DNA of 64,000 bases from Escherichia phage vB_EcoM_Goslar, in sequence record NC_048170.1. One strand, 5' to 3'. A program made the translations under genes and the position numbers. The notes under the pieces were generated by a model. That model saw only the letters and a program-made list of their open reading frames with translations, did not search any database and was not told where the DNA came from. Shown here one piece after another: positions 43,033 to 62,175 of the stretch. Position 1 is the stretch's first letter; each line of letters begins with the position of its first letter.

Positions 43033-43842
43033 TTACCAATGATTAAAGCTGCCCGCTTTAACGACGTCACAGCGCAGATGGTTACGTAACTGATCCAGGA
43101 AGACAACCGGACTGTCACCAGACAACATAGCCAGCGCGTGTTGGCCACCGGAACGAACAACAAGCTCATCAACCATTGGTGCTGTAATCGGGAGATCATA
43201 CGCATCCATGATTGCCTTGGCTTCCTGTTCTACGTCTTTCTGGAACCCTTCCATCGTCGGAGAGTCATATTTGGTTGCAAACTCGATCCCAGGTAAGTTA
43301 ACGTAATCGTAAGTCATGACACGGGTCATAACACGACGGCGCTCACGTTGCCAGATCTGAGGATCGGTTAACGCGCGAACCGAAAAACATACGTTCACTA
43401 GCGGTGTTTCAAAATCTTTACGTAATGGATCACCGTACGGTCCGCAAGGAATAACATCCCCCATCACCATCACGACAGGACGACCACGACGATCACGTCC
43501 AGCTTCCTCTAACCAAATCTTAGAAAAGCAATGGCTTACCTTCGTTTCTTCGATTCGTAATGCCCGCTGCAAAAAGCTGGTTGCATCCTGACCGATCTCT
43601 GGTTTAGGGTGACCGTATTCACCTTTCAACGAACGATTGCGTGCGTTTGTTTGCAATAAACTGTTTTCCAGGAACAGCGGTTTCGAACGCTCAAGTTCGT
43701 AATATTCTTCGGTATTGTTAAAACAGTTAAACCCGCCTATAACACAGGTGTAGGCACCGTCAGCATTAGGACGGATAATACCTTTCTTATTCACACCAAG
43801 ATAACTGGTGCAAACAAGATTACTAATTGGTGGTTGCATCAT
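43033..43842 (-). CDS. hypothetical protein
   Basis: 269-aa ORF. Confidence 0.6.
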   Translation of the reverse strand: MMQPPISNLVCTSYLGVNKKGIIRPNADGAYTCVIGGFNCFNNTEEYYELERSKPLFLENSLLQTNARNRSLKGEYGHPKPEIGQDATSFLQRALRIEETKVSHCFSKIWLEEAGRDRRGRPVVMVMGDVIPCGPYGDPLRKDFETPLVNVCFSVRALTDPQIWQRERRRVMTRVMTYDYVNLPGIEFATKYDSPTMEGFQKDVEQEAKAIMDAYDLPITAPMVDELVVRSGGQHALAMLSGDSPVVFLDQLRNHLRCDVVKAGSFNHW

Positions 43843-43921
43843 AACCCCTTTATAAGCAACTGAATGAAAAAAGCGTTACATTCCCGCTTTTACGTCAAGA
43901 AGGTGACGCGTAAGCGTTATA

Positions 43922-44653
43922 TCACCATTCATACGATCCGGCGCACTGATGCCCCAACAGTACCAACGCGTCGTCTTTGGCAGCTAGGTATTTCTCTAAC
44001 GTTATCCGTGAAACAGACACATTAGAGAAATCCATCACACCTAAGCGATGATCGTAATGGTTAATTTGCATCCGGTAGTAACCTTTCTTTACCACCAGAA
44101 ACTCGCCTTGACGCAACCATAGCGGAACGTTGTCAACCTCCGCATGGATATAAAACACTGGACATTCTGTCGTAACGGAGTTTTCCTTCCCATCGCTATC
44201 TGTAATCTTCCCTTTGGGAACAGCCGCGATAAAACATTCTCCGATACGCTCGGTTTGATACCCGTTTGGATAGCGCGGATCGTGAAATAACCAGTGCTCA
44301 TCGCTAATATCAACATCGGATAATAACGTACGATGTGGACGTAAGGCGATATCAAACGGAACACGATAAATAACGTACCCGCCTAACCAATGGGCTAAGT
44401 GACCGCCAGAAAAATACTGCTTGATTGCGGTACTGTAACCGTATATACAACCCATCAAACTGCTGGATACACAGATCCTTGGAAACGACCCGTCTTCCAT
44501 ACGCAAAGTACGTTGAGGGATACGTGGCATCATCGTTTTCAGTTCGGTATCGGTGCTGATGTGCAATAAACCGAAAGGAAGCGTTTTACTCGGCACCCAC
44601 GCACAACGTTCCATAATCGCTCTTGGGACAATAGTCTCGATAGACGATAACAT
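43922..44653 (-). CDS. hypothetical protein
   Basis: 243-aa ORF. Confidence 0.6.
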   Translation of the reverse strand: MLSSIETIVPRAIMERCAWVPSKTLPFGLLHISTDTELKTMMPRIPQRTLRMEDGSFPRICVSSSLMGCIYGYSTAIKQYFSGGHLAHWLGGYVIYRVPFDIALRPHRTLLSDVDISDEHWLFHDPRYPNGYQTERIGECFIAAVPKGKITDSDGKENSVTTECPVFYIHAEVDNVPLWLRQGEFLVVKKGYYRMQINHYDHRLGVMDFSNVSVSRITLEKYLAAKDDALVLLGHQCAGSYEW

Positions 44654-44654
44654 A

Positions 44655-45365
44655 TCACCCCCTCAGAATCGCTTCTGTTTCGCTGATCGTATCCGCAGGA
44701 TAAACCAAACTACTATCGATTGCGTTATTCACGTAACCACCCATTAAGTTGGTGATGGTGTTTGTGCCGCTATCGATAATGTTTCGTAATCCGATGTCGA
44801 TGGCTTTTAAGGTGCTGCGTTCCTCATCCGAAAGCAAACGCCATGCTCGACGACGATCGTTGGGGTCACGTGTGGTGATAGAAGCCAGAACAGAATAGAT
44901 GCTGCTATCCGCATTCAGTTTAACGCCTGCCAATTTCGCTGACGTGTAGAGCAGCTGATATTTTTCTTTCTCAGTGTACCACCATGGCACCTTACCGAGC
45001 GTATAGATCTCGTTATACATCAGCCATGGGAAAGAGTTTCGCATCACGACATCGGTCGACACCAACACCGTGTCGCCGGGAAGAAACACAAATTCATAAA
45101 ACGGCTGGCCATCCATGGTAATTTCACGGATGTCAGAAGGGTCGATATGGAGCTGGGTCAATGCGTGGCTGACACCATACTGACCATCAGGAAGAATAAT
45201 CGGGCAGCACGCACAAACCCGGTTCTCACTCCCGATGATAGATAAACCCAATCCCTCGTAACGGACGGGTGTCAGAATCGAACACCCGCCACGAGTAACA
45301 ACAGATTTATCTTCTTGTATGTCCCAGTCCGCAAGCACCGCAGCACCGTTGCGGACAAGCGCCAT
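44655..45365 (-). CDS. hypothetical protein
   Basis: 236-aa ORF tightly packed with neighbours. Confidence 0.6.
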   Translation of the reverse strand: MALVRNGAAVLADWDIQEDKSVVTRGGCSILTPVRYEGLGLSIIGSENRVCACCPIILPDGQYGVSHALTQLHIDPSDIREITMDGQPFYEFVFLPGDTVLVSTDVVMRNSFPWLMYNEIYTLGKVPWWYTEKEKYQLLYTSAKLAGVKLNADSSIYSVLASITTRDPNDRRRAWRLLSDEERSTLKAIDIGLRNIIDSGTNTITNLMGGYVNNAIDSSLVYPADTISETEAILRG

Positions 45366-46889
45366 TTACACCTCGCTAATCTGGATAACGTAAAGCTGCT
45401 GGACCACGTAATCGGTGGTCAGATGCATCGTTGCGATGGTTGCTGCTTCGAACACCGTGAGTTCAGGACGTTCACGCATAATCAAATCGATCTCATCGAT
45501 AAGACGGTTAACGCCTTGAGCGTCTTCATGATGCATCGTTTTCACGTACAGCGTACGGAAATACTGCTGGAAATTAGCTACGTCGGTATCGGTAAGGGTA
45601 GCAACTTCACCACGCACAATTTCCATGACCTTCTTACGGGTATCTTCATCGAGGTCCACAGTAATCAGATCAGCAAATACACCCTGCAATGCCAGCGCAT
45701 ATGCACGTAAGCGGTTTGCGGCTTGCTGGCTGGCTTTCATGTTGATGTAGTTACGGTAATGCTGCATGAAGCCTGCGCCGTTAGCCAGCAGCTCATCTTT
45801 ACTGATGAGTTCGCGCTCTAACAGGACAGCTGCGGTTAGTGCTTCCGGTGAACCGCCTTCTTGCAGATAACCCATGTAGACATCCGCGTTAACGAAAATC
45901 GTCATCGTTGACGCATCTTCAGCACGTTGAATCTGAGAAGCTGACGGTGCAGAAAGAATCAGTTCACCACGCTCCATACGCAGAATACGATCACGACCGA
46001 CGCGTGCCATCCCGTTGATCGCCGCAGCACGAGCTTGTTGCATTTTAGCGCGGTAGTTTTCAAGCATCATGTCGTTGCCGTCCTGGATGTCTTCCAGCAG
46101 GTTAACGGCCCACATATAGCAGAGGAATGCAGGAGTTGCCGCAGCGCGGGAACCGTGGAATGCAACGTTATCGCTATCCGGATATGTAATCAGATAAGCG
46201 GTGTTGTTCGAAGAAGGAGCGGAACCACGGAAGAAATAGTTGTAGATGTCTTCCAGTGCCTGATCGCTCATCCCTTCCGTCGCTTGCTGTACAAAACGAT
46301 CCAGGTTTTCATTACCGGTATACAGCAACGTACGCAGCTTGTCACCAGTGATAAACGCAAGCTTTTCGGTTGGGGTGAAATCGTTATTAATCGAAATCAA
46401 GCCATTGAGATCGTAATCGCTAACTAAGGCCTGGTACTCTTCGGAGTTATAAAACTCAGGATAGTAACTCAGACTTACCGTCGGGATCAGTTTCGGTGCC
46501 AGGATGATCGAATCGATACGTTTTTCCAGTTCCGGGTACAGCGCACGGCATTTCGGCAGGATGGTATTACGCGCCAACTCTTTGGCATACACCACTTTTT
46601 CCACCACGTCTTGAACTGCGGTCTGTAAAACTTCATCGTGGATATAAACCTCGCGTTCGCTGGCAGGTGCTACAACGCCATCTTCGGTTTCATCGAGTGT
46701 TTCAGCAACAACCATACGTTCAGCACTAAGTTGCACCAACGCATCCGCGTCTTCCGGTGGCTGGTTCCAATGCATGGTTTCACAAACCGCGGCTAACGGG
46801 GTACCTGGAATCGCAGCGACGATTTGGTTACGTTTGATAAACCCTTCGACAATAGGCTCAACAGCATAAACGGTTTTATTGGTGATCAT
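45366..46889 (-). CDS. hypothetical protein
   Basis: 507-aa ORF immediately downstream (minus sense) of the RNAP beta-like gene. Confidence 0.65.
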   Translation of the reverse strand: MITNKTVYAVEPIVEGFIKRNQIVAAIPGTPLAAVCETMHWNQPPEDADALVQLSAERMVVAETLDETEDGVVAPASEREVYIHDEVLQTAVQDVVEKVVYAKELARNTILPKCRALYPELEKRIDSIILAPKLIPTVSLSYYPEFYNSEEYQALVSDYDLNGLISINNDFTPTEKLAFITGDKLRTLLYTGNENLDRFVQQATEGMSDQALEDIYNYFFRGSAPSSNNTAYLITYPDSDNVAFHGSRAAATPAFLCYMWAVNLLEDIQDGNDMMLENYRAKMQQARAAAINGMARVGRDRILRMERGELILSAPSASQIQRAEDASTMTIFVNADVYMGYLQEGGSPEALTAAVLLERELISKDELLANGAGFMQHYRNYINMKASQQAANRLRAYALALQGVFADLITVDLDEDTRKKVMEIVRGEVATLTDTDVANFQQYFRTLYVKTMHHEDAQGVNRLIDEIDLIMRERPELTVFEAATIATMHLTTDYVVQQLYVIQISEV

Positions 46890-47122
46890 TACTGCGCTCC
46901 CTCCAACGCATTACTACCTACGGGTTCTTTGGTTTCCAGACGGCTGTTTAGGCGCGCAGCAACCGCATCTTCCAATCCCAACGGCATAACCTTTTTGTTC
47001 ACGTCAGGATCGGCGGCATCATTACCAACGGTTTGACGTACGACCTCAGCAACCAACGTTACCGCGTTCGTCAGCGCAACAAAGCTCGCTGCCCGAGCCG
47101 TGTTAAGTTGTTCTTGGTTCAT
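46889..47122 (-). CDS. hypothetical small protein
   Basis: 77-aa ORF. Confidence 0.45.
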   Translation of the reverse strand: MNQEQLNTARAASFVALTNAVTLVAEVVRQTVGNDAADPDVNKKVMPLGLEDAVAARLNSRLETKEPVGSNALEGAQ

Positions 47123-47223: not shown

Positions 47224-50200
47224 TTATTTGGCGTCGTTAAAATAAATATCAACAGCTCGTTCCGTTGCGTAGAGGAGACCAAGATTCACAGTCCCAACCA
47301 CTTCCGGTGAACCGATGATACGGTTAGCGATACTGGTGCCACTGAAGATAGCATCAAGGGTGTGCCCGTCTTCGGTTTTGTTCACACCATGACCCACGGA
47401 AGAGACAACGGATTTCGCTTGTGCTGCGAAGGTACCTTTATCACCCATCCCCGCACCAAGGTCGTAACGCATGAAAATACGGATGGCGATCTGGTTCTCG
47501 CCTAACGGATTACCGTCTATTCTTACGTTACTGTTGTTGATACGCCCCGTTGTTGCTTCGTTGAGTTTCAGTTCCTTAACGCGTTTAGCTCGTGCTTTAT
47601 CCGCATCGCCGACGAGCGCTGCCATGGTTTCACTCATATCCTCAATCTGAGCGCGGTACAATACATCGATCTGTACAACTTCACCATGAACGTCAGCACG
47701 TGGGTTATACTGACTCATACGCCGTAATGCTTCAACGGCTTCCTGACTCTCATCACTCAGATCGGTCGCAATCGGTTCTTCCAGTGTTGCAAGGATCGTT
47801 CGTGGTTCAACATGATCGCCGATTTTCACGAGACCACGAATGTTGAGATGGGCGTCAACGATGAGTGTACGACTCTTAATCGATGGTGTTACGAGACGAT
47901 CGGCAAGATTGTCGAAGATATACGAACTGTCCTCGTGCGTCTCTGGAATATCCAGAATACCGACAAGAGACAGAACACCTGCGCGCCAAACAACCTGACC
48001 TGGGTTCCACCAATCGCGTTTAAAATAAAGACGATGGAAAACCACCACATCCTGATCCTTAACGCGATCCCCGACTTTATAATCGGTAATGAGATCGTGA
48101 GGATAATACTTACCTGGTCCTTTCCCGATTATCGTGCCGAGTTGGAAAACCTCTTCTCCTAACTCTGGATCGTCGTATTGTATCGTAAGCGCAGTTTTGG
48201 TGACCTTCTTAACAACACCATCGCCTTGGGCAGCTGCTGCGAAGAGTTTACCAACACGATGCGCGATGACTGTCTCGCCACCCGTACGCCATGGTTGTAC
48301 ATCGTAACCTTCAGCAGCAATCATGCGGTTGTGTTGGATTCCGACAAAAACCAGACGTTTTCCATCGTCACGGTCTACAGCCGGAACAGCTAACGCCGAC
48401 GTACTCATTACCGATGAGATACCATCTGTCTTTTCATCGAATGGTCGTGTTTCACCATACACCGACACGATATTAGCATTAGGTGCAAGGTAAGCAGAGA
48501 TACCCACATCCCCACTATCTTTCGTACCCTCTGACACAATACCAACATCAGACTTGTCGTATTCACGATCGCGTGCGCGTCGAAGCGATGTCTTTGAACG
48601 ACCTCCGATACCGGTCATCGTTGCTTCTTCACCTTGCTTGATATCCAGCATTGGGTTGGTTTCATCAATGACGATAGAAGCACTGTCGTCAAGGATTTGG
48701 TTCCAAACGCTCACCGGACTGATTGAGATCTTCTGTCGGTTGCCTTGGCTGCTGTTCTCATTCTGACGAATAGCGCCAACCAGGTCCTTATACACCAATT
48801 CAGCGAACTTATCGTACGTTTTAAAACGTTGGTAGTTCACATCGTTCGTGTTAGGTGCCCAATCATCCAGAAGCAGTTCAACAGCACGCAGTAGCAACAT
48901 GGCGAAATCAGTAGGTTCTCCCATGTTCTGTAATAGCGTACGGCTTACCGGATCAACGAAAAGACGCTCCATGAGTTCAAGTTCGCGTAAATGGCGAACC
49001 TTAAGTCCAGCACCATCGACAACGTTAAAATAGATATCACGATTGTCAAAAGCGCCGCGAGCGTAACCGATGTAGTTACGGTACTCGTTAAACCCACCCA
49101 GCAACAACGTCGTCATGCGATCGTCTTTACTGAAAATCAAACTTTCATCGTCAAAGCTCACCGCGAATTCATCTGCTGCTAACCCCATACGAGAACCACG
49201 AGGTACCGTACGATAGTTTGCTTTAAGATGTTCTAATAACGGGGTAAGTCCGCCCAGATAACTTAGAACAACGCCAACCGGAATACGTACACCCATGAAT
49301 TCAAGATCGGCGGCTTCGATCGGCATCTTAGCCGCATTGATACCGAAGAAATCAGGGAACGTCCCTACAGGTGTTGGTGTTTGTCCTGACTGACAGATAT
49401 AGAGCTGATTGCGTTCATCGATCGCTAGGAACTCACCCGATGTGTTACGTGCGAACGTCAGGAGTCCTTCGGCTAACTGTTCGTTGAACCGATCTTCCCC
49501 AATGAACTCCGGCAATGTTTTTATATCGAGACGTATATCCCAATCAGCAAATTGGATTTGGGTATAGTTGCGTGCAAGCACAGCGAAGTAATACGGGACT
49601 TTGACAGCCGGATCAAAGACGTTACCACGTTTTAACGTTGTTAAGGGTGAGGACTTATCGTAATACATCGCCGTAAGTTGACGTGTTAGCCAACGACCGG
49701 CGTTATTAACGACGCGCTCTGAACGTTTAACAAACACCTTACCGTAGGCGGTACTTAATGCAACTTCGGATGATGATACCTTTCTAATAGGTTTATCAAC
49801 ACGTTGTTTACGCATCCGGTACTTGATGCCGTTAACAACATAAATGCCATCCTTACGAACCTTCGGCAACATCACCGGGAACGTGGTTGGGACACCGCCT
49901 ACAGGGGCCAGTTTAATCGTGATGACTTGATAATCCCCCATCACGTCAACAACATCTTCGACTTTATATCCCGTAACAGGGTAACCTGCTTGCTGTACCG
50001 CAACAACGGCAGCTGCGATGTCCTTTTGCATTACATGCTCAACGTAATGTTTATCCCACACCGCAAGCGTCGATTTACATAGGCTCTTATCGACGATAAC
50101 ATCCGCTTCCGGCATAACCTTTGCGGGAGCTAATTTTGCGGCTTTTGGTTTAACTTCAACATACTCGGCAAGCGTGAGTCCAGAACCGTCGGGCGCTTCG

Positions 50201-51570
50201 ATTTCATGAATAGCGTCGGCATTACGCATCGCTGCTTTATATTGGACGCCGCTTAACTGACCCGCATCCGCCAGATCGCTCGCGCGCACCAACACCGCAT
50301 CCGATAACGACTGAATATATTCACCGTGCGTTTTTGGTAACGTTGCCGCGTCAAAGACATCAACCTTTTCTTCTTCGGTATCGTCGGTAACGACTTCGAA
50401 GAGATCGTCGGTAATGTCCTGATCTTCATCGGGTTGGAAATCTGGTTGTACTTCTACCCCGGGTACTTCACGGACATCTTCGAACGCGCGTTCTACAATG
50501 GCGTTCCACGCATCAGCGTCATCGTCTTCATCCGACCCACCGACCAACTCCGCTTCTAACTCGTCGGGGTCAAGAACAGTGGCCAGATCCTCCCCGTTAG
50601 GAAGCATGACGTCACGATCATCGTACTCCGCATCCGGGCTGTCCGCAAGAATATCTCGCTCTTGACGAAGAACCTGTTCCTCTTCTTGTTTCTGTTCTTC
50701 TTCATTCGCACTCTGCGACCACAGACGTGTTACCGCCATCATCCAACGACGCTGGAAGGTTTCAAGTGTCGTTTTATCGAGTTCTTCCCCTTCCTTTACA
50801 AGTCCGGTACGCCATTCTTCCAGTAGACCAAGATTCAGCGTAAAGAAGTACACACCGTCTGTAAATACAACGTTAAGCTTATCCAGCGTGGCTCTGTCTA
50901 ACGAAGCCATCGTGCTGTTCTCACGATCGACGCCCAGCCAGCGGAAGAAGTCAAAGAACGACAGCTCCTCCGGCGTGGCGAAATTCATGAGGTTGTTACG
51001 GGTCGGTGCCTGTTGCGTGGTACGCATCAACGAAATCTTCGGCAATGTTGACGGTATACGGAACAACAAAAAGTGTTGACGATCGCTTTGCTGTGCGATT
51101 TCGTTGGCTTTCGACCAAATTGTTTTACGCACGTTGAACCATTCATCATACCAACGGGTGAGCGTTGGACGATAGATGTACATGTGGTTAAGATGTGCGT
51201 AGTTAGCAACGATCTGAGCGTTGATGTTTTTCTCCACCGTACTTAGATCGGTAACCAAACGAAAACGACGATGCGATGCACGATAATCCAATTTCGCTCG
51301 TGGAAGTTGGAATCGTTGATCGCGTCGAGGTGCACCCTGTTTGGTTGCGAGATCATCAGCAAACGAAATCCATAGTTGAGCACTTTCTTTACTCAGCATG
51401 TATTCGTTTTCTGGAGGACCTATCAATGAAGGATCCGTTGCGGTGTAATGATAGACAGCATAACGCGGCAGCTGCAATAGCTGCACTAAACGTAATCTCG
51501 GTGACAATAGCTCTTGGTAGCGTCTGACACCAAACTGTCGGTAGTAATCAAGGTATTTAAGTTTTGCCAT
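47224..51570 (-). CDS. virion-type RNA polymerase beta-like subunit (N-terminal extension plus beta core; phiKZ gp180-like by position)
   Basis: 1448-aa ORF. Beta motifs: DGIYVVNGIKYRMRKQ (cf. DNGTFVINGTERVIVSQ), TGIGGRSKTSLRRARD...SEGTKDSGDVGISAYLA (cf. GPGGLTRERAGFEVRD...PEGPNIGLINSLSVYA), GAGMGDKGTF...EDGHTLDAIFSGTSIANR (cf. AGRHGNKGVIS...[20 protein letters not shown]). The first 480 aa or so are non-homologous and include an acidic stretch. Confidence 0.75.
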   Translation of the reverse strand: MAKLKYLDYYRQFGVRRYQELLSPRLRLVQLLQLPRYAVYHYTATDPSLIGPPENEYMLSKESAQLWISFADDLATKQGAPRRDQRFQLPRAKLDYRASHRRFRLVTDLSTVEKNINAQIVANYAHLNHMYIYRPTLTRWYDEWFNVRKTIWSKANEIAQQSDRQHFLLFRIPSTLPKISLMRTTQQAPTRNNLMNFATPEELSFFDFFRWLGVDRENSTMASLDRATLDKLNVVFTDGVYFFTLNLGLLEEWRTGLVKEGEELDKTTLETFQRRWMMAVTRLWSQSANEEEQKQEEEQVLRQERDILADSPDAEYDDRDVMLPNGEDLATVLDPDELEAELVGGSDEDDDADAWNAIVERAFEDVREVPGVEVQPDFQPDEDQDITDDLFEVVTDDTEEEKVDVFDAATLPKTHGEYIQSLSDAVLVRASDLADAGQLSGVQYKAAMRNADAIHEIEAPDGSGLTLAEYVEVKPKAAKLAPAKVMPEADVIVDKSLCKSTLAVWDKHYVEHVMQKDIAAAVVAVQQAGYPVTGYKVEDVVDVMGDYQVITIKLAPVGGVPTTFPVMLPKVRKDGIYVVNGIKYRMRKQRVDKPIRKVSSSEVALSTAYGKVFVKRSERVVNNAGRWLTRQLTAMYYDKSSPLTTLKRGNVFDPAVKVPYYFAVLARNYTQIQFADWDIRLDIKTLPEFIGEDRFNEQLAEGLLTFARNTSGEFLAIDERNQLYICQSGQTPTPVGTFPDFFGINAAKMPIEAADLEFMGVRIPVGVVLSYLGGLTPLLEHLKANYRTVPRGSRMGLAADEFAVSFDDESLIFSKDDRMTTLLLGGFNEYRNYIGYARGAFDNRDIYFNVVDGAGLKVRHLRELELMERLFVDPVSRTLLQNMGEPTDFAMLLLRAVELLLDDWAPNTNDVNYQRFKTYDKFAELVYKDLVGAIRQNENSSQGNRQKISISPVSVWNQILDDSASIVIDETNPMLDIKQGEEATMTGIGGRSKTSLRRARDREYDKSDVGIVSEGTKDSGDVGISAYLAPNANIVSVYGETRPFDEKTDGISSVMSTSALAVPAVDRDDGKRLVFVGIQHNRMIAAEGYDVQPWRTGGETVIAHRVGKLFAAAAQGDGVVKKVTKTALTIQYDDPELGEEVFQLGTIIGKGPGKYYPHDLITDYKVGDRVKDQDVVVFHRLYFKRDWWNPGQVVWRAGVLSLVGILDIPETHEDSSYIFDNLADRLVTPSIKSRTLIVDAHLNIRGLVKIGDHVEPRTILATLEEPIATDLSDESQEAVEALRRMSQYNPRADVHGEVVQIDVLYRAQIEDMSETMAALVGDADKARAKRVKELKLNEATTGRINNSNVRIDGNPLGENQIAIRIFMRYDLGAGMGDKGTFAAQAKSVVSSVGHGVNKTEDGHTLDAIFSGTSIANRIIGSPEVVGTVNLGLLYATERAVDIYFNDAK

Positions 51571-51573
51571 GGG

Positions 51574-51754
51574 TTAGGCTCCACGAGGTCCCGTTAAGTT
51601 GCGTAATAGGAACGCAACCGTATCGTAACCAATATCAATGTTGAATTTATTTTTACCACTTACCCAGAAAGCTCGCTTCTTGTGCGAGTTGGTAATTTCG
51701 TCAATAGCTTCCATGGAATAAAGAACGTTAACCGAGACCGTATCACCGTCGAAC
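51574..51754 (-). CDS. virion-type RNAP beta' N-terminal subunit, proposed exon 2
   Basis: In-frame segment (G)FDGDTVSVNVLYSMEAIDEITNSHKK...GPRGA* aligns with E. coli [20 protein letters not shown]; a stop lies 3 codons upstream, so the exon must begin here; it ends 3 nt before the beta gene ATG. Confidence 0.5.
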
Positions 51755-53807
51755 CTTGTCTTCGCCTCAGGTCGCTACGCTGAGACCGCCTGCATGGATA
51801 CGTACATCACAGGCTGCTTGCACTTTCATGCAAGAGGAGACTATATCAAACCGTCAGCTTCACTTTCTCGATCATATCGAGAATGCGGCGCTGAAGTATT
51901 CTTCAGCAGCACCTGTTACGGTAACCTACACTTCGAAGACGCTTGTCCTCTACAGGGTGGTAAATCCCTTAGTCGTTGAACCTGCGTTGTTTCACATTCT
52001 TACAACCAAGAATGCCGTATTGCTACGCAATAACCAGGCTGCTGATTGCCCATTGTCTCGCACCTTAGCACCGCTTACGCGGCTTTTCTTTCAGCCTAAG
52101 CCTCTTACGGAGGTAGTGCATCTCAACTGTTGTTTCTGCCTTTCGGCACCTCATGGGTCGTTGAGCTTTAGGGGTTCCCAGCAATTCGTAGGTTTTTCAA
52201 GCACTCCCTTTCAGGAATACCGGACCTTATAGAAAAGCTATTTATTCAAGTATCTGAAATCCCACTTATCCTTACGTCTATTATCGCACTTGATGTCAGG
52301 ATGTCTAACACGGTGTTGAATCGTAGTCGCTGGTAATTGACTCACATTCACAGCCGATTTCGCGCCAAGAACAATTGTTTTTGTGTTGTCCGGACGAGTA
52401 ACTTCTACCGCTCGATGATGTTTACGTAACACATCACGCCAATACTCACGCCGTTCCGGTTCCGCGTATTCGAGCATATAACCGTTGGTATCGACCAGAC
52501 CGTAACTCTCGTTTAAACGAGAGGTGGCGGCTGGTCTACTAATACCAATCGCTTTAGCCGCGTCAACCACGGTTTTATACGGGGTCTCATTACCGTCTCT
52601 ATCTACAACCACAATAAAATCTGGACGCGAATCGAGCAGCTGCTGTCTTCGTTCAAGGGCTTGTTGATGAAGCACCTTATTAACATGTTCGAACCCGTAA
52701 CCTTCTGGACCGTGCCACCCTGGATTGTTATTCGCTCGATAAAGTATCGTCGCAGATTTCACTCCCGTCTGACGTGACGCCTCGTTCGCACTATGGACAA
52801 CCGTGGTAGTGCCATCAGGGTGATATATCCGTATCTGGTTCATTATACCAGAACCAACGAAATTACCATCAGCTGATTTAATGTCCGGCCAGGGTTGTGG
52901 ATCATCTTTGAATTTAACCACCCAACGGTTGTTAAACAATTTGACTTTCCGAGCATGTTTACCTAATGTCGTGTCTGTAACACCGGCTACAGCAGAGGCT
53001 TGCGCGATACTAGGATATTCCGTGACCACATCTTCTTCAGTATCCCAAAGGAGAACCGGTTTGTTATCATCACGTAGTCCGGTCTCAACCGCATGTAGAA
53101 TATTTCTAAGGCGGGTTGCCCATTCTAGATTGTCTAACGCGTAATTCCACTTATCGCCATCAAGATGGTTAACGTCCATCCTATCGACATCAGCCGGATA
53201 ATCTTTCCACGCTAAGAGCAGACAGCGATGAAGCGATCTTCTCTGGGATTTAAATCGGCAATCATGCTGCATACTAACGAAAACATAGCTATCGTCAACA
53301 CACCAGTGAGGACACTGACGGCCAGTAATACGGTTGATGATTCTACCTTTCCGGTTGGCCAAATAACGAGTGTGTCCGGGAATGACACGATAACCTGGGT
53401 ACTTAGCGATTTCGTAAGCAGGCTCGAACCGATAGGATAAATTATCAACATCCCAGTTAGATTCGTCACCATCAACAAACATCGCTTTGACGTATTTCTG
53501 TGTTTCAATATCAACCAGGATGTTTTTGTGTGCGATACAAATCAATGCTGGGATATTGAATTCGCGACCGGCTATGATAACCGTGTCGCCATTTCTCGGT
53601 ACCTCGACGTGGGTATCGCGATACCGTAAGTTTCCATAGCCGTCTATTTCAATCCAGCTTAAAAACGGAATGGGTATAAACTCTTTTTCAGATACTCGCC
53701 ATTTAAACATTTCAATACCTATTAATTACCACTTTCATATTAATAGGTTTAAAAGTTAAATTTGCCAGAAAACTGGCATTTTGTTAGCCTTTCCTTGATC
53801 ACCGCCA
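51755..53807 (-). mobile_element. group I intron (about 2.05 kb) in the vRNAP beta' gene, HNH ORF in the P1 loop
   Basis: Minus-strand elements: exon end CCGGACU (plus 53808..53814) pairs with IGS GGUCCGG (52220..52226) with U-G at the splice site; P AAUUGCUGGGAA (52175..52186); Q AAUCAGCAGCC (52037..52047); R GUUCAACGACUAAG (51968..51981); S UUGAUAUAGUCUCC (51836..51849). Intron ends in G at 51755. 5' splice site could instead be at 53798. Confidence 0.55.
52238..53710 (-). CDS. HNH homing endonuclease (intron-encoded)
   Basis: 490-aa ORF with HNH motif DRMDVNHLDGDKWNYALDNLEWATRLRNILH, similar to the HNH in the other RNAP intron; lies between the beta' exon 1 and the intron core. Confidence 0.8.
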   Translation of the reverse strand: MFKWRVSEKEFIPIPFLSWIEIDGYGNLRYRDTHVEVPRNGDTVIIAGREFNIPALICIAHKNILVDIETQKYVKAMFVDGDESNWDVDNLSYRFEPAYEIAKYPGYRVIPGHTRYLANRKGRIINRITGRQCPHWCVDDSYVFVSMQHDCRFKSQRRSLHRCLLLAWKDYPADVDRMDVNHLDGDKWNYALDNLEWATRLRNILHAVETGLRDDNKPVLLWDTEEDVVTEYPSIAQASAVAGVTDTTLGKHARKVKLFNNRWVVKFKDDPQPWPDIKSADGNFVGSGIMNQIRIYHPDGTTTVVHSANEASRQTGVKSATILYRANNNPGWHGPEGYGFEHVNKVLHQQALERRQQLLDSRPDFIVVVDRDGNETPYKTVVDAAKAIGISRPAATSRLNESYGLVDTNGYMLEYAEPERREYWRDVLRKHHRAVEVTRPDNTKTIVLGAKSAVNVSQLPATTIQHRVRHPDIKCDNRRKDKWDFRYLNK

Positions 53808-55264
53808 AGTCCGGCGAGGTATGGCGCAGGGACAATAGTAGTTTCTACGAACGAGGCATTAGGTAACCAGTCGGGGTATTCCCACGCAATAAATCGCTCA
53901 TCCGTTATTGGTTCCCAGTTACTATCAAGTTCAGTTTTCGGTTTTGCTGCAACGGTCGTACGCGCGTAACAGGTTAACGGAATGACGGATTGCATACCCG
54001 ATACCGGATAACGTGTTACCATTGCAGCCAGGTTATTCCAGTATTTATATCCTGCGATATACACTAATTCGGTATACGTGATAGGGTGAACATCTGCACC
54101 AGGTTTGTTAAGCATCTCCGGAGGTAATTCACTCATACCACGGAATAACCGAAACGAATCATTGTTCACATAGACAAGACAAAGATATCGTCCATTAACC
54201 ATGATAGGTTCGTTACGCACACCCGGATCGCTTAAGGTGTTCAGTAAGCGTTCTATTCCGTCCCAGGTTGTAAAGTCATCGATGGTGTCTGGATCAAGCG
54301 TGACGCGTTCACGTTCCATCGTTTCGGTATCAATAAGTTCAACTTCTGTAACATCACGGACAAATATTTCCTGCAAAATCCCCGTACGTAATGCATGTTG
54401 CGTTACAGGGAGAGCAGCTTTACTCATCTGGTATAACCCTAACTGAACCGCGGTACAGGAAGGCTGGTTAGGCGACCCTAGTACCTCCGTTGTGGGGTTA
54501 ATTGCTGAAATAACGTTACGGGTTGAGTTCCAAACGCGACGTGAACCAAACTTACCTTGGAAGATCCCTTTCTTACCTTGGAACATATCCAACAACAAAG
54601 CGTAGATATCGTTAAATGTTCTCTGTAAGCTCCAGCGCTGGCCGTCGTAAACGGGATCAGAATAATCTTTTAATCCATCGGGGACGGTGTTAGAAATTGC
54701 AAGGAAACGACGATACAACTCTGTAATCTCTTGCTCGCTTTCATACCCGCCTTCTTTTACTTCTATTTCACGTAAGCCTGCAGGCAATACCAGTAAGTGA
54801 CGGGTCATCGCTTTGAACATGTTCTCTTCGACAACTTTAATTCGTAGCTCTCGTTGAGCTGAGCCCGTTGAAACGAACTTGATATCCGCGACGTGTTGTG
54901 CAAAGAACCCGTATCCTGTTTGTCCTGTTAACGCATCAGACGCAACGAAGTCGCGTTGTTCAGGATCCCAACGAGCGTACGCCTTCCCCGACATGATATC
55001 ACCATAGAGGTGTTTTAGTCGAATGAGGCGGTCGTAAATGACAGGGTGCAGGATTTCAACTTTACATTCAATCACCGCAAATCGACGGTCTCGATCTTCA
55101 CTACCCGCACTACCAAAGATGGTGTAAGAATAGAAACCATCATCGTGGAAATTACCGGTGCTTGGGTCACGAATGCTCATGCTCGTGATCTTGGGGAGAA
55201 AACGTAACTGCTGTTTATCGAGGTGTAAAATGCTAATGTTAAACGGCTCTCTGACTTTAGCCAT
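53808..55264 (-). CDS. virion-type RNAP beta' N-terminal subunit, exon 1 (phiKZ gp178-like by position); start trimmed
   Basis: Beta' motifs RFAVIECKVEILHPVIY (cf. RMGHIELAAPVAHIWF) and FQGKKGIFQGKFGSRRVWNSTRNVISAINP (cf. [27 protein letters not shown]). ORF track gives 53756..55306; ATG at 55264 has an AGAGGAG RBS; 3' end set at the P1-predicted splice site. Confidence 0.65.
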
Positions 55265-55509
55265 GGAGACACTCCTCTTTACCACCACCGGCTGCGGCGG
55301 TATCATCTGAACACACGAGAGACGTAATGGGTGATGGCGTCACCCATCGCTTCCTTGCTTGAGGCGAGGAAGTTATTAGGTTACGTACCTGCGTGATAAA
55401 ATCAAGCAGGCGATGTGTGAAGTTACGCTTCAACATTATCAATGCCGAAGGTAAACTTCGTGCATCACGTTCCAACGTAACATGGGAACGTATCGAACTG
55501 GAGGTATAC

Positions 55510-58500
55510 ATGGTAGATAAAACCCGTGTTGAGGGTGATGATAATTGGGATAACTGGGATGAAGACTTCTCCCTGGATCTCGATTTTAACGAACCCAAAG
55601 ACGATCGTAAACCGATAACACGCTTTGCGATAGGAGCGGTTAAAGGTGCTGCTGAGGATCTTACTTCCTACGAAAGAATGAAGGAGATCGCCAGAAACGC
55701 ATTGCCTAAGGGCTACAGCGACGGTATGGATCTTATCGATTCCGCCGTCGGATCCACGAAGGAACTATACAATGAAGCCGTTCGTGACGTTCTTCCTAAG
55801 GTCCAAAGCTCAAAACGGTTAGCAGCACAACTGACCAAGAAATACCGTGCGAGCATGCCCGATTTCTCGAAGAAAATTCTTGAGCAATGGGAGCGAGAAG
55901 CCAAGGAAGAAGACGAACGTAAACAAGCTGAAGAAGCCCTTCGTCAACGCATGGCGAGCGCGGGGGACGATGAGATCGCCCGCAAGGTTGCCGAGGCATT
56001 AGGCGAATCAGCAAACCAAAGCGCGGATCAGTTTGCTGAACAGCAAGCGAAAGAAAGTATCCGTGACGATATCGCTGACAAACGGTACGCTGTAACCAAC
56101 AAACAAATGAGTGCGATGCAAGAAGGCGTCGCCAAGATGGTTGGTTTCAACAATGAATTCGCTGCACGCTACATGCGTAAAAGCCTGGAACTGAAATATC
56201 GTTCCTTAGCGATTCAACGTGCAAGTTTCGATCAGCATAAAAAGTTAGCCGAAGTCTATATCGGTCTATTACAAAACATCCAGAAGAATACGGCTTTACC
56301 TGATGCAGCTAAAGCGAAGATGTCGGAAGAATTCCGTCGTAGTGCATACCAACGTTTCTTTGGTAATGCGTTAGATGCGATGGGTTCTTTCGAGAACCGT
56401 TTCTTTGCCGATGTTAAGAAGAACCTCGCCACCAACGCATTAGGTGCTTTAAAAGGCGTCGTGTCTGGCGCAAACGATGCGTTATACGGTTTAAACGAAG
56501 CACGTGACTCGATGTCCATGATGGACGGGATGGGGTCAGAAGGCGATATTAAGGAAATGCAAGGAAGGATGTTGGGTCAGTTCATTGGCTCAACTGTCGC
56601 GCCGTGGATGGCTAATAAAGGCAGGATGGCGTTACGCGATTTAGCAAAACGTCACCCCAATGCTAAATTCGCAGGTGCGTTAAAAGCCGTGGATCAAGGT
56701 GGTGAGGCTGCCGCTTACACGACGCGTAATCTCGGTAAACTGCTCCAGGAAGATATTCGTAAGAACGAATTCAATCTTAGCGATCCATTTTACAAGCAAT
56801 TGTTACGCGGCGCAGGGCGTTGGGCGTTCAACATGGACAGCGGACGTAACTTCCGTGTGATGAACGACACCGCTGAAACACTGGCAGAGCAAACATCTTT
56901 CGACGGTTTAACCTACCGCAGCATCAACGAGGTTATTCCGGGCTTTCTTGCACGCATTCTGAAAAGCAGTGAGGGTATCCGCACCGGAAACAGCGATCCT
57001 GACTACGAGGTCTATGACGGCATCAGCGGGCAATTCGTGGCTCAGCGCACGCGCGAACAAAGCGTCAACGACACGCTGTTTAACAAACGTTCGTTTGGTT
57101 ATTACGCAAGCCGTTTCAATGAGGTTATCTCGGTCATCGATCCCGATAAACAATTATCGGAAAAAGCCAGAAAGGCGCTGGCCAAGCAGTTGGCACGAGA
57201 TAGCGACGCAAACATTGCATTCGACCCAGCTCGTTTTACGGATGAAAGCAACTTCGATCGTAGTATCGACCGTGACGCTATTAAGGAACTTTCCACATAC
57301 TTTCGAGACCGTTACGGTATTCGTGATGATGTCAACGATAAGGGCGAACGTCATCAGGTCATTGGAAACCGCGGGCAATATTACACGGAACGTAACCGAG
57401 CTGACCTTCGCTACGGAAATCTGAAATCGTTACAACCGGATATTCAGCGTAACCTTAACCTACTGAAACGTACTGGTGACGTCCAATATCTGGAACGTAT
57501 CGGTATCGTAACGAGAAATAGCGACGGAAGCTACTCAGTTAATCACGATCGGTATTTCTCTGAAATCGATCGATACATCGACCGACCGGAGTACGCTGAC
57601 CGCGGCGATGTTAATACGCGATTAACCGCTCAGGAAACAAGAGCGCTGGCGTTGGGTTATCGTGACGCAAAACCATCAACTGGTGACGTCCAAAATGCGG
57701 GTCTGCCGAACATCGATCGTAAGGCTGCTGGAACAGTAACCGTTGATGAAAACATCGGCTACGATAAATGGTGGAACGACGCTGGCGTTATCACTACATC
57801 GCTTGAAGAACAGAATCGAGCATGGCAAGAACTCTATCTCGAAGCGTTATCTGAAGCATCCGAACAACGTGTCGAAATGCTTGCGTTGCTGAAAGCCATT
57901 TCTGAGAAAGACTGGTCTAATAACGTTTCGCTGGATGGTGAAGACGTACCTGAAGGTGCAGCGCCCATTTCATTTATCGATCGCGCCAAACAAAAACTCG
58001 GCGGACGCAACCTCTTTAAAGGTGGCCGTAATCTCCTCTGGAAAGGAATTAAAAATACCGCACGATTGGGTGTTAAAGGCGCACGTTGGGGTGCAGAACG
58101 TACATTAGGTAGTTTGGTAAATTCCGGCCGACGTATTATCAATTTCAACCGTTTTGTGTTCGGCGCATTATCCAAGGTCGATCAGGTTCCGTTTGACATT
58201 TACGTTAAAGGGGAATCCCAACCACGCATACTGGCTGCCAAACTTCGTCAGGGGTTATACTTCGACGAGGCGACAGGAAAAGCCGTAAAACGGATGAAGG
58301 ATATCAAAGGCCCACTCGTTGATGCGGATGGAAACGTCGTAATCAGCAACGAGGATATCGAGAAAGGGCTGGTCACTCGCGCTGGTCGTGCCTTTGAGAA
58401 TTCAGGACTTAAGGCGTGGGCGCATGAAGGTCTTAATGGAATAACGACGGTATTAAGTCTGCCACGGATGTTAAAACGCGGTGCGGTTGAGATCTACAAA

Positions 58501-61500
58501 CAGCTTGACAGAACACCCGACGTTTACGTCAAGGGAGAATCAACGCCTCGTCTATTATCCATGGTGTTAGCAGCGGGTGGGTATTTCCGTCGCTCTGATG
58601 GGCAAGTCATCAAAAATCTTGAAGACATCGATGGTGATGTTGTTGATGCACAAGGTAACGTCGTACTTACGCTTGCCGACATGCAGAAAGGACTTGTCGA
58701 TAAATACGGTAAAGCGATTCGTCGCTTAAAAGAAAAGCTCATCAACTTCGGTGTGAAAGCTTTCACGTTACCGTTAACCTTACTACGCAAGACAAAGGAC
58801 ATCCTTAAAGCCCTTCCAGGTAAAACCGTTAACGGTCTACGACGGATGGGATTAAATTTCCAATCACCTGACGCATTACTGGTGGGAACAACGTCGAGCA
58901 TGGTAGATCGGCTCGATGCGATTTACCAGCTTCTTGACCAGCGTATGCCGGGTGGTGATAAGGATTACCGCGATTGGGATGGCGATGGTGTTCGAGAAGG
59001 ATCGTTGGAAGACCTGAAACGTAAACGTGCAGCCAAGGAAAACGGTGAGGATGACGCAGGCAAAGATTCCAATAAAGGGGAAGAAAAGGAGAAGAAACGA
59101 GGATTACTCGGAAGCCTTTTCGATATGCTCGGCGATACCGCATTAGGTAAACGCCTCATGGCGAGTCCGCTTGGAAAAATTCTAGGTGGTCTTGGGGCGG
59201 TGTTAAGCGGCGGTGCATCGTTAACCGGGTTGTTGGGCAAAGGTCTCATTAGAGGAACCGGTGCACTGGTCAAGGGAGGACTAAGTGCGGCAGGATGGTT
59301 AGGACGTGGTGCGTTAATGGCGGGCGGGGCCGCATTGAACGCCGTTGGTGGGTTATCGGGATTAGGTGCATTCCTCATCTCACCTGTTGGGCTTGCTATC
59401 GCTGGCGGCGCATTGGCTGCTTATGCTGGATGGAAGATCTATCAGCATTTCGCCGAGAAGCCTGACCCGATGCAGAAGCTCCGTCTTATCGCATACGGTG
59501 TAAAAGGTGACGATAAAGACTTCAATAAGAAGCTGCTTGCGACAGAAACATACCTCACCGACCATGTGGTTATGACCGGGGATACCATCGGATTCGATCC
59601 GAAAGCCGATTCTGAAAAGATTCTCGAAATCTGGGAATTGTCCCTGGAAGATTCCGACCGAATGAACGAATGGAAACGTTGGTATCTACATCGTTTTATT
59701 CCTGTTTTCGCTCGTGCGTACAAACTCTGGAAAGAGCATATGCCGGACGAGAAGAAATACATGGAAATGGATAAATATCCAAACGGTGAGAACAAAGTGA
59801 AATGGTCGGAAGCGTTTATCTGGCCTTCCGATAGTCCTGATGGTCCGTATTACGTCGAAGCTAACCCGTTGGGTTCTTCTGGTGCGACGCGTTATATTGC
59901 TGGTCAAGACGTCAAAACCTTGATGCTGAAACAACTCGAAGCCATCAAGAAAGAGTACCAGAATCAGATTAAGCAATACTCTCATGATGAGGCTATTGCT
60001 GATTGGTCACGGATGTCTGACACACAACGTAAATCCGTTGCGCCTAACGCATTACGCGGTCAGAAAGCGTCGTTACGTTTTAACGATAAACGTTACAACA
60101 GTGCTGGCGCTAAAGGACGACAGAAACTGGATGCAACCGCGGTTATTGAAAGCGTAGACCGCCGCGGCAGGAAATGGGTTGCCGGTGGATACATCGATGA
60201 ACTCACCAGTCTCCGTGTTCGCGCGTACGGTATCAAGGTTCCGTTGTTAAGCCAGATAAAAGTGCTGATGGAACTTGAAGACGCTGTAGAACCTGGCGTT
60301 GTCGCTGAAGGTAAAGGTGTTAAATACGGTGGCGATCTTGTCGCGCTCTACAAGAAATTCGCGACGAAGTTCGGAAGAGACGTTAACAGCAAGCATGATC
60401 AGGATATCTGGTTTGCTTGGATGAATAACCGTTTCCTGCCCGTCTTTTTAACCTATTACCAACAAGTTAGCGAAATGGGCGGTCAAGGACTTCTGTCCGA
60501 CGTGGTACAGAACCTGAAAGACAGCCAGCGTTGGGAAATCGGTGAAGCACTTGTCGCAACGCAATACCGTGATGAGAAAGGTGCATTACAGCCTGTATGG
60601 TCGTGGAACAGTTGTGGTTTCTCCGGTACTGAAGCTAACACCACCAGCAGTTCAACAAAGAGCCAACTCGATCTGTTAAAAGAATATGCGGATAAAGAGA
60701 AGGTTCGTGAGAAGAACGCGGAAGCATCGCAAGAGGATACCGATAAATTATCGAAGATCCAAGAGCTGATGATGAAGCAGGCTGGGTACGAGAAGAAAGA
60801 CGGTGTCTGGCAGAAGAAATCTCGCATTACTGGTGGGATGAGTAACTCCGAAGCGAATTACAACCCCAATGGGAATAAGGTCGGTGCAAGCAGCTTTACT
60901 GCTTCGGCTACTTCCAATGCGGGATTGGGATCAACCGGCGATCTTACTGGATTGCCTAACATGGGCTTACAGAAACCGGCAACGGGACCGGGTCCTGAAG
61001 CTGGACGTCGTGCGCTTGTTAAATCCGCTGTAAAACGCGGTATTACCGATCCAATGGAAATGGCGATGTTCCTTGCGAACATCGAACATGAATCGGGGAA
61101 CTACACTCACGTACGTGAGGGGAACTATAAGACACCTGAGCGTCTTAAACAGGTCTTCCCTTACAAATTCCGTGATGTGCAGGATGCCGCACAGACGATC
61201 AGCATGGGGCCGGAAGCGGTATTCGAACGTGTGTATGGTAATCGTAAAGACCTAGGAAACACACAGAAAGGAGACGGGGCGAAGTATTTAGGACGTGGAT
61301 TCATTCAGGTTACCGGTAAAGCTAACTACGCTCGTCTGTCTAAGACCTTGAATAAGGATCTTGTCAGCGATCCGACATACCTGGAAACGCCGGAAGGTGC
61401 AGCGGAAGGTAGTGTTGCATGGTGGCTCAACCGAGGTAACGTATTACGCGATCCCGCAAAACGGGGTGACGTGCGCCAAGTTCGTTATCTGGTTAATGGT

Positions 61501-62175
61501 GGCTATAACGGATTACGTGATGTTGAACAACGTTCTGCATATTGGATTCAGGCGGCTAAGAATGGCACCCTGAAGAAAATGATGGACGAGTTATCAGGGT
61601 CAACATCAGACGATCAAGCTGAAGGACCGACCACTGCCGAACAGGTGAAGAACGAAGCAGCACAAGAGGCAAACGGAACACCAGCTGTAAGCAACGATCC
61701 GCAAGCCCCAGTATCTTCTACTACCCCTGAAGCTAAACCGTCTGCAGCTGCCGGGACGGCCCCAGCACCTGGAGAAGCATCACCAACGCCTGGAAGTTTC
61801 GAAACAGCAAAAGCCGCGGCAGGACAACCGACATCAACTCCAGCACCTAGCGATTTGCCGTCAAACCCGGGCGCAAATCGAGGGATATCGGTTCCGAATA
61901 CGCCTGCACAGGTTGCACAGTCTGCGACACAAACGTCGGCTGCAAGTGAGAACTTCTACGGTAGCGCAGGTGAAATTCTCCGACAGCAGCTGACCACGCA
62001 GCAGAACATCGAGAAGAACACCGGTAGAACGAATGAACTTATTTCGGAATTAATCCAAGCCGTTAAGGGTTCTTCTATCGGTAAGGGTTCTGCAGGTCCT
62101 TCTCAACAACAGACGATGTCGCTACCTAATCGTCCGCAAGGAATCTCTCCAACACGGACAAGGTACGCACAGTAG
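55510..62175 (+). CDS. giant virion-associated peptidoglycan hydrolase with C-terminal GH19 domain (phiKZ gp181-like); start trimmed
   Basis: ORF track 55393..62175 (2260 aa); ATG at 55510 follows CUGGAGGUAUAC. C-terminal GH19 signatures FLANIEHESGNY, YLGRGFIQVTGKANY, VAWWLNRG (about 61000..61570); Gly/Ala-rich hydrophobic segment (about 59160..59450). Confidence 0.8.
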   Translation: MVDKTRVEGDDNWDNWDEDFSLDLDFNEPKDDRKPITRFAIGAVKGAAEDLTSYERMKEIARNALPKGYSDGMDLIDSAVGSTKELYNEAVRDVLPKVQSSKRLAAQLTKKYRASMPDFSKKILEQWEREAKEEDERKQAEEALRQRMASAGDDEIARKVAEALGESANQSADQFAEQQAKESIRDDIADKRYAVTNKQMSAMQEGVAKMVGFNNEFAARYMRKSLELKYRSLAIQRASFDQHKKLAEVYIGLLQNIQKNTALPDAAKAKMSEEFRRSAYQRFFGNALDAMGSFENRFFADVKKNLATNALGALKGVVSGANDALYGLNEARDSMSMMDGMGSEGDIKEMQGRMLGQFIGSTVAPWMANKGRMALRDLAKRHPNAKFAGALKAVDQGGEAAAYTTRNLGKLLQEDIRKNEFNLSDPFYKQLLRGAGRWAFNMDSGRNFRVMNDTAETLAEQTSFDGLTYRSINEVIPGFLARILKSSEGIRTGNSDPDYEVYDGISGQFVAQRTREQSVNDTLFNKRSFGYYASRFNEVISVIDPDKQLSEKARKALAKQLARDSDANIAFDPARFTDESNFDRSIDRDAIKELSTYFRDRYGIRDDVNDKGERHQVIGNRGQYYTERNRADLRYGNLKSLQPDIQRNLNLLKRTGDVQYLERIGIVTRNSDGSYSVNHDRYFSEIDRYIDRPEYADRGDVNTRLTAQETRALALGYRDAKPSTGDVQNAGLPNIDRKAAGTVTVDENIGYDKWWNDAGVITTSLEEQNRAWQELYLEALSEASEQRVEMLALLKAISEKDWSNNVSLDGEDVPEGAAPISFIDRAKQKLGGRNLFKGGRNLLWKGIKNTARLGVKGARWGAERTLGSLVNSGRRIINFNRFVFGALSKVDQVPFDIYVKGESQPRILAAKLRQGLYFDEATGKAVKRMKDIKGPLVDADGNVVISNEDIEKGLVTRAGRAFENSGLKAWAHEGLNGITTVLSLPRMLKRGAVEIYKQLDRTPDVYVKGESTPRLLSMVLAAGGYFRRSDGQVIKNLEDIDGDVVDAQGNVVLTLADMQKGLVDKYGKAIRRLKEKLINFGVKAFTLPLTLLRKTKDILKALPGKTVNGLRRMGLNFQSPDALLVGTTSSMVDRLDAIYQLLDQRMPGGDKDYRDWDGDGVREGSLEDLKRKRAAKENGEDDAGKDSNKGEEKEKKRGLLGSLFDMLGDTALGKRLMASPLGKILGGLGAVLSGGASLTGLLGKGLIRGTGALVKGGLSAAGWLGRGALMAGGAALNAVGGLSGLGAFLISPVGLAIAGGALAAYAGWKIYQHFAEKPDPMQKLRLIAYGVKGDDKDFNKKLLATETYLTDHVVMTGDTIGFDPKADSEKILEIWELSLEDSDRMNEWKRWYLHRFIPVFARAYKLWKEHMPDEKKYMEMDKYPNGENKVKWSEAFIWPSDSPDGPYYVEANPLGSSGATRYIAGQDVKTLMLKQLEAIKKEYQNQIKQYSHDEAIADWSRMSDTQRKSVAPNALRGQKASLRFNDKRYNSAGAKGRQKLDATAVIESVDRRGRKWVAGGYIDELTSLRVRAYGIKVPLLSQIKVLMELEDAVEPGVVAEGKGVKYGGDLVALYKKFATKFGRDVNSKHDQDIWFAWMNNRFLPVFLTYYQQVSEMGGQGLLSDVVQNLKDSQRWEIGEALVATQYRDEKGALQPVWSWNSCGFSGTEANTTSSSTKSQLDLLKEYADKEKVREKNAEASQEDTDKLSKIQELMMKQAGYEKKDGVWQKKSRITGGMSNSEANYNPNGNKVGASSFTASATSNAGLGSTGDLTGLPNMGLQKPATGPGPEAGRRALVKSAVKRGITDPMEMAMFLANIEHESGNYTHVREGNYKTPERLKQVFPYKFRDVQDAAQTISMGPEAVFERVYGNRKDLGNTQKGDGAKYLGRGFIQVTGKANYARLSKTLNKDLVSDPTYLETPEGAAEGSVAWWLNRGNVLRDPAKRGDVRQVRYLVNGGYNGLRDVEQRSAYWIQAAKNGTLKKMMDELSGSTSDDQAEGPTTAEQVKNEAAQEANGTPAVSNDPQAPVSSTTPEAKPSAAAGTAPAPGEASPTPGSFETAKAAAGQPTSTPAPSDLPSNPGANRGISVPNTPAQVAQSATQTSAASENFYGSAGEILRQQLTTQQNIEKNTGRTNELISELIQAVKGSSIGKGSAGPSQQQTMSLPNRPQGISPTRTRYAQ

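Follow-up and report, generated by a model that had tools for sequence, protein, structure and literature searches.

Nucleus-forming jumbo phages must load a five-subunit RNA polymerase into the head, and the enzyme has to survive amidst packed DNA, pass the tail and restart in the host. Among the closest described proteins is gp241 of phage SPN3US: in an amber mutant of this gene all virion-polymerase subunits are absent from the heads, the protein has been hypothesised to target the pre-assembled polymerase complex into the head, and a long N-terminal region without homology to cellular beta subunits was described for it (Thomas et al. 2016, PMC5105663). In 201phi2-1, the ortholog is reported to be cleaved at TFE-275 with loss of a propeptide of 275 N-terminal residues, and the SPN3US ortholog keeps its N-terminal region uncleaved (Ali et al. 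2017, PMC5694885). Phage proteins with the beta-subunit double-psi beta-barrel (DPBB) were also reported to carry a "unique N-terminal region" found in no other RNA polymerase (Iyer et al. 2021, PMC7824862). Here we describe a gene of this kind in a 64,000-nucleotide stretch of Escherichia phage vB_EcoM_Goslar (NC_048170.1), referred to as the window; all coordinates are those of the window, and all features lie on its minus strand unless stated otherwise. An open reading frame (ORF) of 1448 codons (47224..51570) encodes the complete beta-N subunit of the virion RNA polymerase; its product likewise possesses an N-terminal region of some 400-500 residues without homology to cellular beta. The first ~490 residues make up an N-terminal module peculiar to the beta-N subunits of phiKZ-type (Chimalliviridae-like) virion polymerases, and we consider it fairly probable that this module combines a head-targeting N-domain with a spacer linker. 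Such an extension and its proposed role in packaging were already published in 2016-2017, and the current picture is unchanged.

Judged by its sequence, the product of 47224..51570 is an ortholog of phiKZ gp178, SPN3US gp241 and 201phi2-1 gp273/274. The profile phrog_3148 ("RNA polymerase beta subunit") aligns residues 4-1443 with its positions 2-1420 of 1424 (1389 bits, E = 0), and the phiKZ match in a tblastn search with residues 1-501 as query is gp178, a protein of 1451 residues annotated as "structural head protein". The gene order of the window is that of phiKZ gp181/180/179/178/177/176/175, and matches to phrog_2986, phrog_3841, phrog_2926 and phrog_3014 place the gene in the neighbourhood that characterises the beta-N family. 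The beta-like RNA polymerase subunit of the original prediction, which had been made from the letters of the window, is therefore borne out from end to end, and can be specified as belonging to the phiKZ-type virion polymerase. No Pfam family was found for the whole protein or for any part of it, even at E <= 10. The orthologs from SPN3US, phiKZ and 201phi2-1 (PHROG 3148) resemble the window protein in length class (1385-1527 residues), in neighbourhood and in the possession of a four-part N-terminal module followed by beta lobes and the DPBB; the window protein differs from them in its high divergence, in a linker that is among the most acidic of the family and in its unsplit gene.

A long stretch preceding a recognisable polymerase subunit might be an annotation artefact, if the true start lay downstream of the acidic region or if a separate gene had been fused to the subunit by an error in sequencing or assembly. 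This explanation is refuted by several observations, we found no point in its favour, and we assign it practically no probability. The ~490 residues that precede the beta-like body (50103..51570) are part of an uninterrupted ORF, with a Shine-Dalgarno sequence (GGAG) 8 nt upstream of the ATG and the stop codon of the preceding beta'-N last exon 4 nt before it. Orthologs from 11 diverse phages, 1385-1527 residues long, begin at a common aligned position, which speaks against an internal start further downstream, and in none of the homologs examined is the acidic part found as an upstream gene of its own; in the window the upstream ORF is the beta'-N last exon. Where homologs are represented by short ORFs, these break inside the beta body, at the equivalents of D592 and D1069, and none breaks at the boundary of the extension. 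The identical 1448-residue protein was moreover called on an independent Logan contig of 4801 nt (run SRR32224759).

The extension is also widely conserved. A tblastn search with the first 501 residues found 230 phage records, all of phiKZ-like jumbo phages, and HMMER, run exhaustively over 1.84 billion representatives, returned 1161 proteins at E <= 0.001, 700 of them at E <= 1e-30; in the best 150 of the 1161, the N-domain stands at the N-terminus in every case (150/150). Aeromonas phage D3 has ~530 residues ahead of the lobes, although tblastn missed its N-terminus. Word-indexed protein searches yielded one match for residues 1-501, none for residues 1-295 and six for the N-domain alignment of 11 phages. 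Four "hypothetical proteins" among the word-indexed matches (P0004-P0007, from Salmonella SPFM phages and one E. coli record) were set aside: they look like block-scrambled or frameshifted beta-N N-termini, and are probably artefacts of assembly or annotation in the source records.

The beta-like body (residues ~490-1448 and the stop codon, 47224..50103) comprises the lobes, a fork-loop motif NPxxxIK...GxGGR and a DPBB motif GDKG...NQxK. A profile of 10 orthologs matched bacterial beta chains in three collinear segments (best 1iw7_C, E 1.9e-09), with Thermus beta residues 396-463, 536-655 and 821-881 falling on profile positions 965-1031, 1046-1169 and 1353-1411; these matches show that motifs of cellular beta (the fork-loop region and the DPBB with GDK...K) are present in the window protein. 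The stretch DGIYVVNGIKYRMRKQ at residues 574-589 resembles GTFVINGTERVIVSQ, which we take to be a beta motif at about residues 140-155 of the E. coli subunit, and this resemblance suggests that the beta body begins at about residue 490-500. An onset of homology at around residue 500, as originally proposed, is therefore supported by the reading of motifs; sequence statistics, in contrast, pick up homology to cellular beta no earlier than about residue 970. Residues 530-620 gave a weak Foldseek match to a chain of the phiKZ non-virion polymerase (8que_E, probability 0.87), and an HHalign comparison of the ortholog profile with the non-virion paralog phiKZ gp123 (543 residues) gave no usable alignment.

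The original prediction had described some 480 residues of extension with a highly acidic stretch, and this description agrees with the ~480-490 residues found here. The interval given for it, 50340..51570, lies within the extension and covers residues 1-410; the whole extension reaches to about residue 490, at 50103. According to the structure models the extension is a module of four parts, an N-domain (residues 1-256), a helix (266-309), a linker (~291-419) and a helical module (420-478), after which the beta lobes follow. An AlphaFold2 (AF2) model of residues 1-620, built on a 77-sequence alignment, has a mean predicted local distance difference test score (pLDDT) of 85.6 and a predicted template modelling score (pTM) of 0.76, with low confidence confined to residues 311-419, and residues 1-310 modelled alone reach a pLDDT of 95.6 and a pTM of 0.90. 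The N-domain (50803..51570; pLDDT about 96) is predicted to be a compact, basic alpha/beta fold, and occurs only in virion-polymerase beta-N subunits; its counterpart in 201phi2-1 is the part cleaved off as propeptide. It is followed by a loop (residues 257-270, 50761..50802; 257-265 in the AF2 model) with a candidate prohead-protease site at T268-L-E270, the position to which TFE-275 of 201phi2-1 aligns, directly after the N-domain. The long helix (50644..50775; helical at 266-309 in the AF2 secondary structure) has a conserved first part, QRRWMMAVTRLW. The helical module (50137..50313; consensus LAxxGxLSxxEYxR...PxP, pLDDT 88-97) is conserved in all aligned orthologs, and after it and a short linker the model places the first strands of the beta lobe.

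The original prediction called the extension non-homologous, which is correct relative to cellular beta. In relation to other phages the term does not hold, since the extension contains a conserved and confidently folding family domain, present in 230 phage records and 1161 representatives. The N-domain can be aligned among orthologs at 21-36% identity, and carries a net positive charge in 75 of the 76 homologs (+8.9 on average). It is family-specific and bears only a generic alpha/beta-sandwich resemblance to solved structures. Foldseek found no match in the PDB for the 620-residue model at E <= 0.001, a PDB search by single sequence gave a chance match only, and comparison of the N-domain with polymerase, sigma and gp68 structures revealed no fold similarity. 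The significant matches in BFVD are virion-polymerase beta-N orthologs; two further ones near E 7e-4 are a protein of Bacillus phage PBS1 and, from a metagenome, a Myoviridae protein with the annotation of an RNA polymerase subunit.

The features of the N-domain have a bearing on a second explanation, in which the N-terminal module takes part in transcription itself: as a factor built into the subunit it could serve initiation at early promoters or assembly, in place of gp68, the sigma-like fifth subunit of the non-virion enzyme, or of the missing alpha platform. The five polypeptides of the virion polymerase are all fragments of beta or beta', with no sigma-like one among them, and in the non-virion enzyme gp68 is essential for both assembly and promoter binding (PMC8287921). 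A basic N-domain that apparently packs on the first beta lobe (AF2, pTM 0.76) would suit such a function, as would its retention in SPN3US virions (PMC5694885). On the other hand, the N-terminal region is removed in 201phi2-1, and neither a sigma nor a gp68 fold can be recognised in it; we regard a role of this kind as unlikely, if worth bearing in mind.

The acidic low-complexity linker (residues 291-419, 50314..50700) had been put forward as the salient element of the extension. Its composition is as described: it consists of 36% D/E with a net charge of -39 (47 D/E and 8 K/R in the 130 residues 291-420), and the acidic strings quoted originally are found at residues ~291-403. The densest 120-residue window of the protein holds 47 D/E, compared to 27.5 +/- 2.1 (maximum 36) when the protein was shuffled 2000 times; the protein is itself acidic overall (15% D/E versus 11.6% K/R). 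The linker is predicted to be disordered from about residue 311, with a pLDDT of 43-70 over residues 311-419 of the 1-620 model. At the DNA level the only repeat is one of 12 nt in 2.4 copies, encoding EEEQKQEEEQ. As a salient element the linker fares poorly: it is the least conserved part of the extension in sequence, with high column entropy and low occupancy among the 76 homologs, and is conserved in charge only. Between 54 and 222 residues long, it has a net charge that ranges from -5 to -57 and is negative in 76 of 76 homologs (median -21, mean -21.9), among which the window linker with -39 is one of the most acidic. A semi-conserved acidic-hydrophobic island, DEDQDITDDLF (residues 381-391, 50398..50430; family consensus D-x5-DL-x2-L), could be a short binding motif.

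The original prediction also proposed that the acidic stretch might mimic nucleic acid. In a third explanation, the linker is accordingly a tethered DNA mimic or auto-inhibitor, which fills the DNA cleft or neutralises the basic N-domain in the packed head and is displaced after ejection. This would be in line with negative charge as the one conserved property of the linker, with an adjacent N-domain that is net positive almost throughout, with the semi-conserved island at 381-391, and with a length that we infer to be sufficient to reach the main channel. Acidic DNA-mimicking elements do exist in multisubunit RNA polymerases, namely region 1.1 of sigma70 and the acidic expander loop of Pol I, which like the linker are acidic and attached to the enzyme close to its DNA cleft. 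These two, however, lie in the cleft in solved structures, whereas the linker is known only by its charge, is predicted to be disordered and is not conserved in sequence. The charge is all that favours mimicry; acidic disordered linkers are common, and variable length together with an about ten-fold range in charge is more in keeping with a spacer than with a calibrated mimic. Overall we think that mimicry is quite improbable.

As an observation in its own right, the opposite charges of the N-domain (50803..51570, positive in 75 of 76) and the linker (50314..50700, negative in 76 of 76) form a charge dipole that extends throughout the family. A bolder idea is that the basic N-domain and the acidic loop constitute a conserved electrostatic switch, a tethered mimic in the head that after ejection into the early infection vesicle is displaced, or cut away in those phages that process the subunit, and thereby licenses early transcription. 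If this were true, the acidic loop would hold the packed genome away from the polymerase cleft or from the basic domain; we consider it very doubtful.

We return to the explanation that we favour, a head-targeting N-domain followed by a spacer. Going mainly by the published work on orthologs, the pre-assembled five-subunit polymerase would enter the prohead by means of the N-domain, which would serve as its handle and act like a very large capsid-targeting sequence. The prohead protease would then cut the N-domain off at the post-domain loop in some phages, and leave it in place in others. For the acidic linker, the most likely role is that of a flexible spacer open to the protease, whose negative charge may keep it extended and off the DNA in the packed head. 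The cognate prohead protease is encoded by the same phage (43033..43842, phrog_3014, E 4.8e-58; ortholog of gp175, a head maturation protease), three genes downstream of the beta-N gene. By analogy with the orthologs, packaging appears to be the best-supported role of the N-terminal module, and of the role in packaging or ejection that had been suggested for the acidic extension, it is packaging that ortholog genetics (SPN3US gp241) and proteomics (the cleavage in 201phi2-1, PMC5694885) point to.

Several points nevertheless weigh against a targeting handle. In the SPN3US mutant the whole protein is missing, and its phenotype does not point to the N-domain in particular. Mature virions of SPN3US, and probably of phiKZ, still carry the N-domain, and it may also act after ejection. 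Judging by the pTM of the 620-residue model (0.76), the N-domain may pack against the region 420-620, in which case it would be integral to the enzyme and not a free handle. Nothing in our data accounts for why the linker must be acidic. Finally, a motif [STAG]-x-E occurs in the acidic post-domain loop of 43 of the 76 homologs and is missing in the closest relative, and is thus not discriminating enough for processing of the window protein to be predicted from it.

With the T4 capsid-targeting sequences and the long propeptides of phiKZ-like head proteins, which the prohead protease cleaves, the N-domain shares its N-terminal position on a prohead-bound protein and, in at least one relative, its removal by that protease. 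The T4 targeting sequences, however, measure 10-20 residues, in contrast to a folded domain of 256 residues plus a helix here, and the N-domain of beta-N is not removed in every case, being retained in SPN3US; targeting by the N-domain is putative. A second parallel is provided by coliphage N4, where the terminal regions of the virion RNA polymerase serve encapsidation and injection. The N4 enzyme is likewise packaged and ejected, and its non-catalytic terminal domains have been studied for structural and regulatory roles (PMC13492108). It is, however, a single-subunit, T7-like polymerase without kinship in sequence or fold, and the likeness is one of functional analogy only. In jumbo phages that form a nucleus, no candidate for a polymerase-loading handle ranks above the beta-N N-terminal module, and experiments could be guided by three of its properties: a basic, confidently folding N-domain without known structural relative, a linker that throughout the family is conserved in negative charge only, and a short conserved helical module behind it.

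The splitting of beta-N genes in other phages deserves separate mention. About 55 of the best 150 representatives have ORFs that end right after the equivalent of D592 (...RKQRxD; about 49795..49797 in the window), and about 55 have ORFs that end right after the equivalent of D1069 (...DRDD; about 48364..48366). These two positions look like hot spots for the insertion of introns or homing endonucleases. The D1069 site coincides with D1071/D1072 of phiKZ gp178, which the intron endonuclease gp210 of PhiPA3 targets (PMC11087766). The beta-N gene of the window is intact at both of these common split sites.

Directly upstream, the beta'-N gene is interrupted by what its sequence identifies as a group I intron that encodes an HNH endonuclease. 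The first exon, an ortholog of phiKZ gp180 (53798..55306, 503 codons; phrog_2986, E 3.1e-161), ends in ...LAGLGGD, and the last exon (51574..51753, 59 codons and a stop) starts with FDGDTVS; the intervening 2044 nt (51754..53797) split the beta' catalytic motif as NAD|FDGD. Within the intron lies an HNH homing-endonuclease ORF of 490 residues (52238..53710; HNH_3 and phrog_59 matches), and Rfam RF00028 is matched at 51817..52245 with 67.7 bits (E 3.9e-16; gathering score 50). Unspliced, the gp180 ortholog ORF spans 53756..55306 and adjoins the beta-N neighbourhood as in phiKZ; it stops within the catalytic motif (...LAGLGGD, then read-through), as phiKZ gp180 stops at ...LAPLGAD, and the remaining part (FDGDTVS...) lies 2 kb downstream, in a stretch that stops immediately ahead of the beta-N gene. 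The splice sites are predicted after T 53798 and G 51754, with a U before the 5' site and a G before the 3' site, and the product of 562 residues spliced in silico is collinear with intronless orthologs through LGGD|FDGDT. The stop inside NADFDGD had raised the suspicion that the extension of beta-N is a displaced beta' fragment, which was rejected because FDGD... belongs to a separate exon past the intron. An intron at the equivalent site of phiKZ (gp179) was predicted in 2002, but a long-read transcriptome showed no splicing of it (PMC10914365).

A nucleotide-level search of the phage collection gave no match to the window, and protein identity to any deposited phage is at most ~36%; on these grounds the source phage appears to be a new, divergent member of the phiKZ-like group, and the window adds a very divergent member to the beta-N family. 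The nearest distinct representative is metagenomic (P0012, 1448 residues) and ~53% identical across the N-terminal 620 residues. Upstream of the polymerase genes, a large tail lysin gene (55393..62175) lies divergently on the opposite strand to the beta-N gene. On the downstream side, the gp177 ortholog (45366..46889) matches the phiKZ gene order, and is followed by the ortholog of gp176 and of SPN3US gp244 (44655..45365, 236 residues; phrog_2926), a proposed beta'-C subunit. The block 43033..47122 as a whole corresponds to phiKZ gp177.1, gp177, gp176 and gp175.

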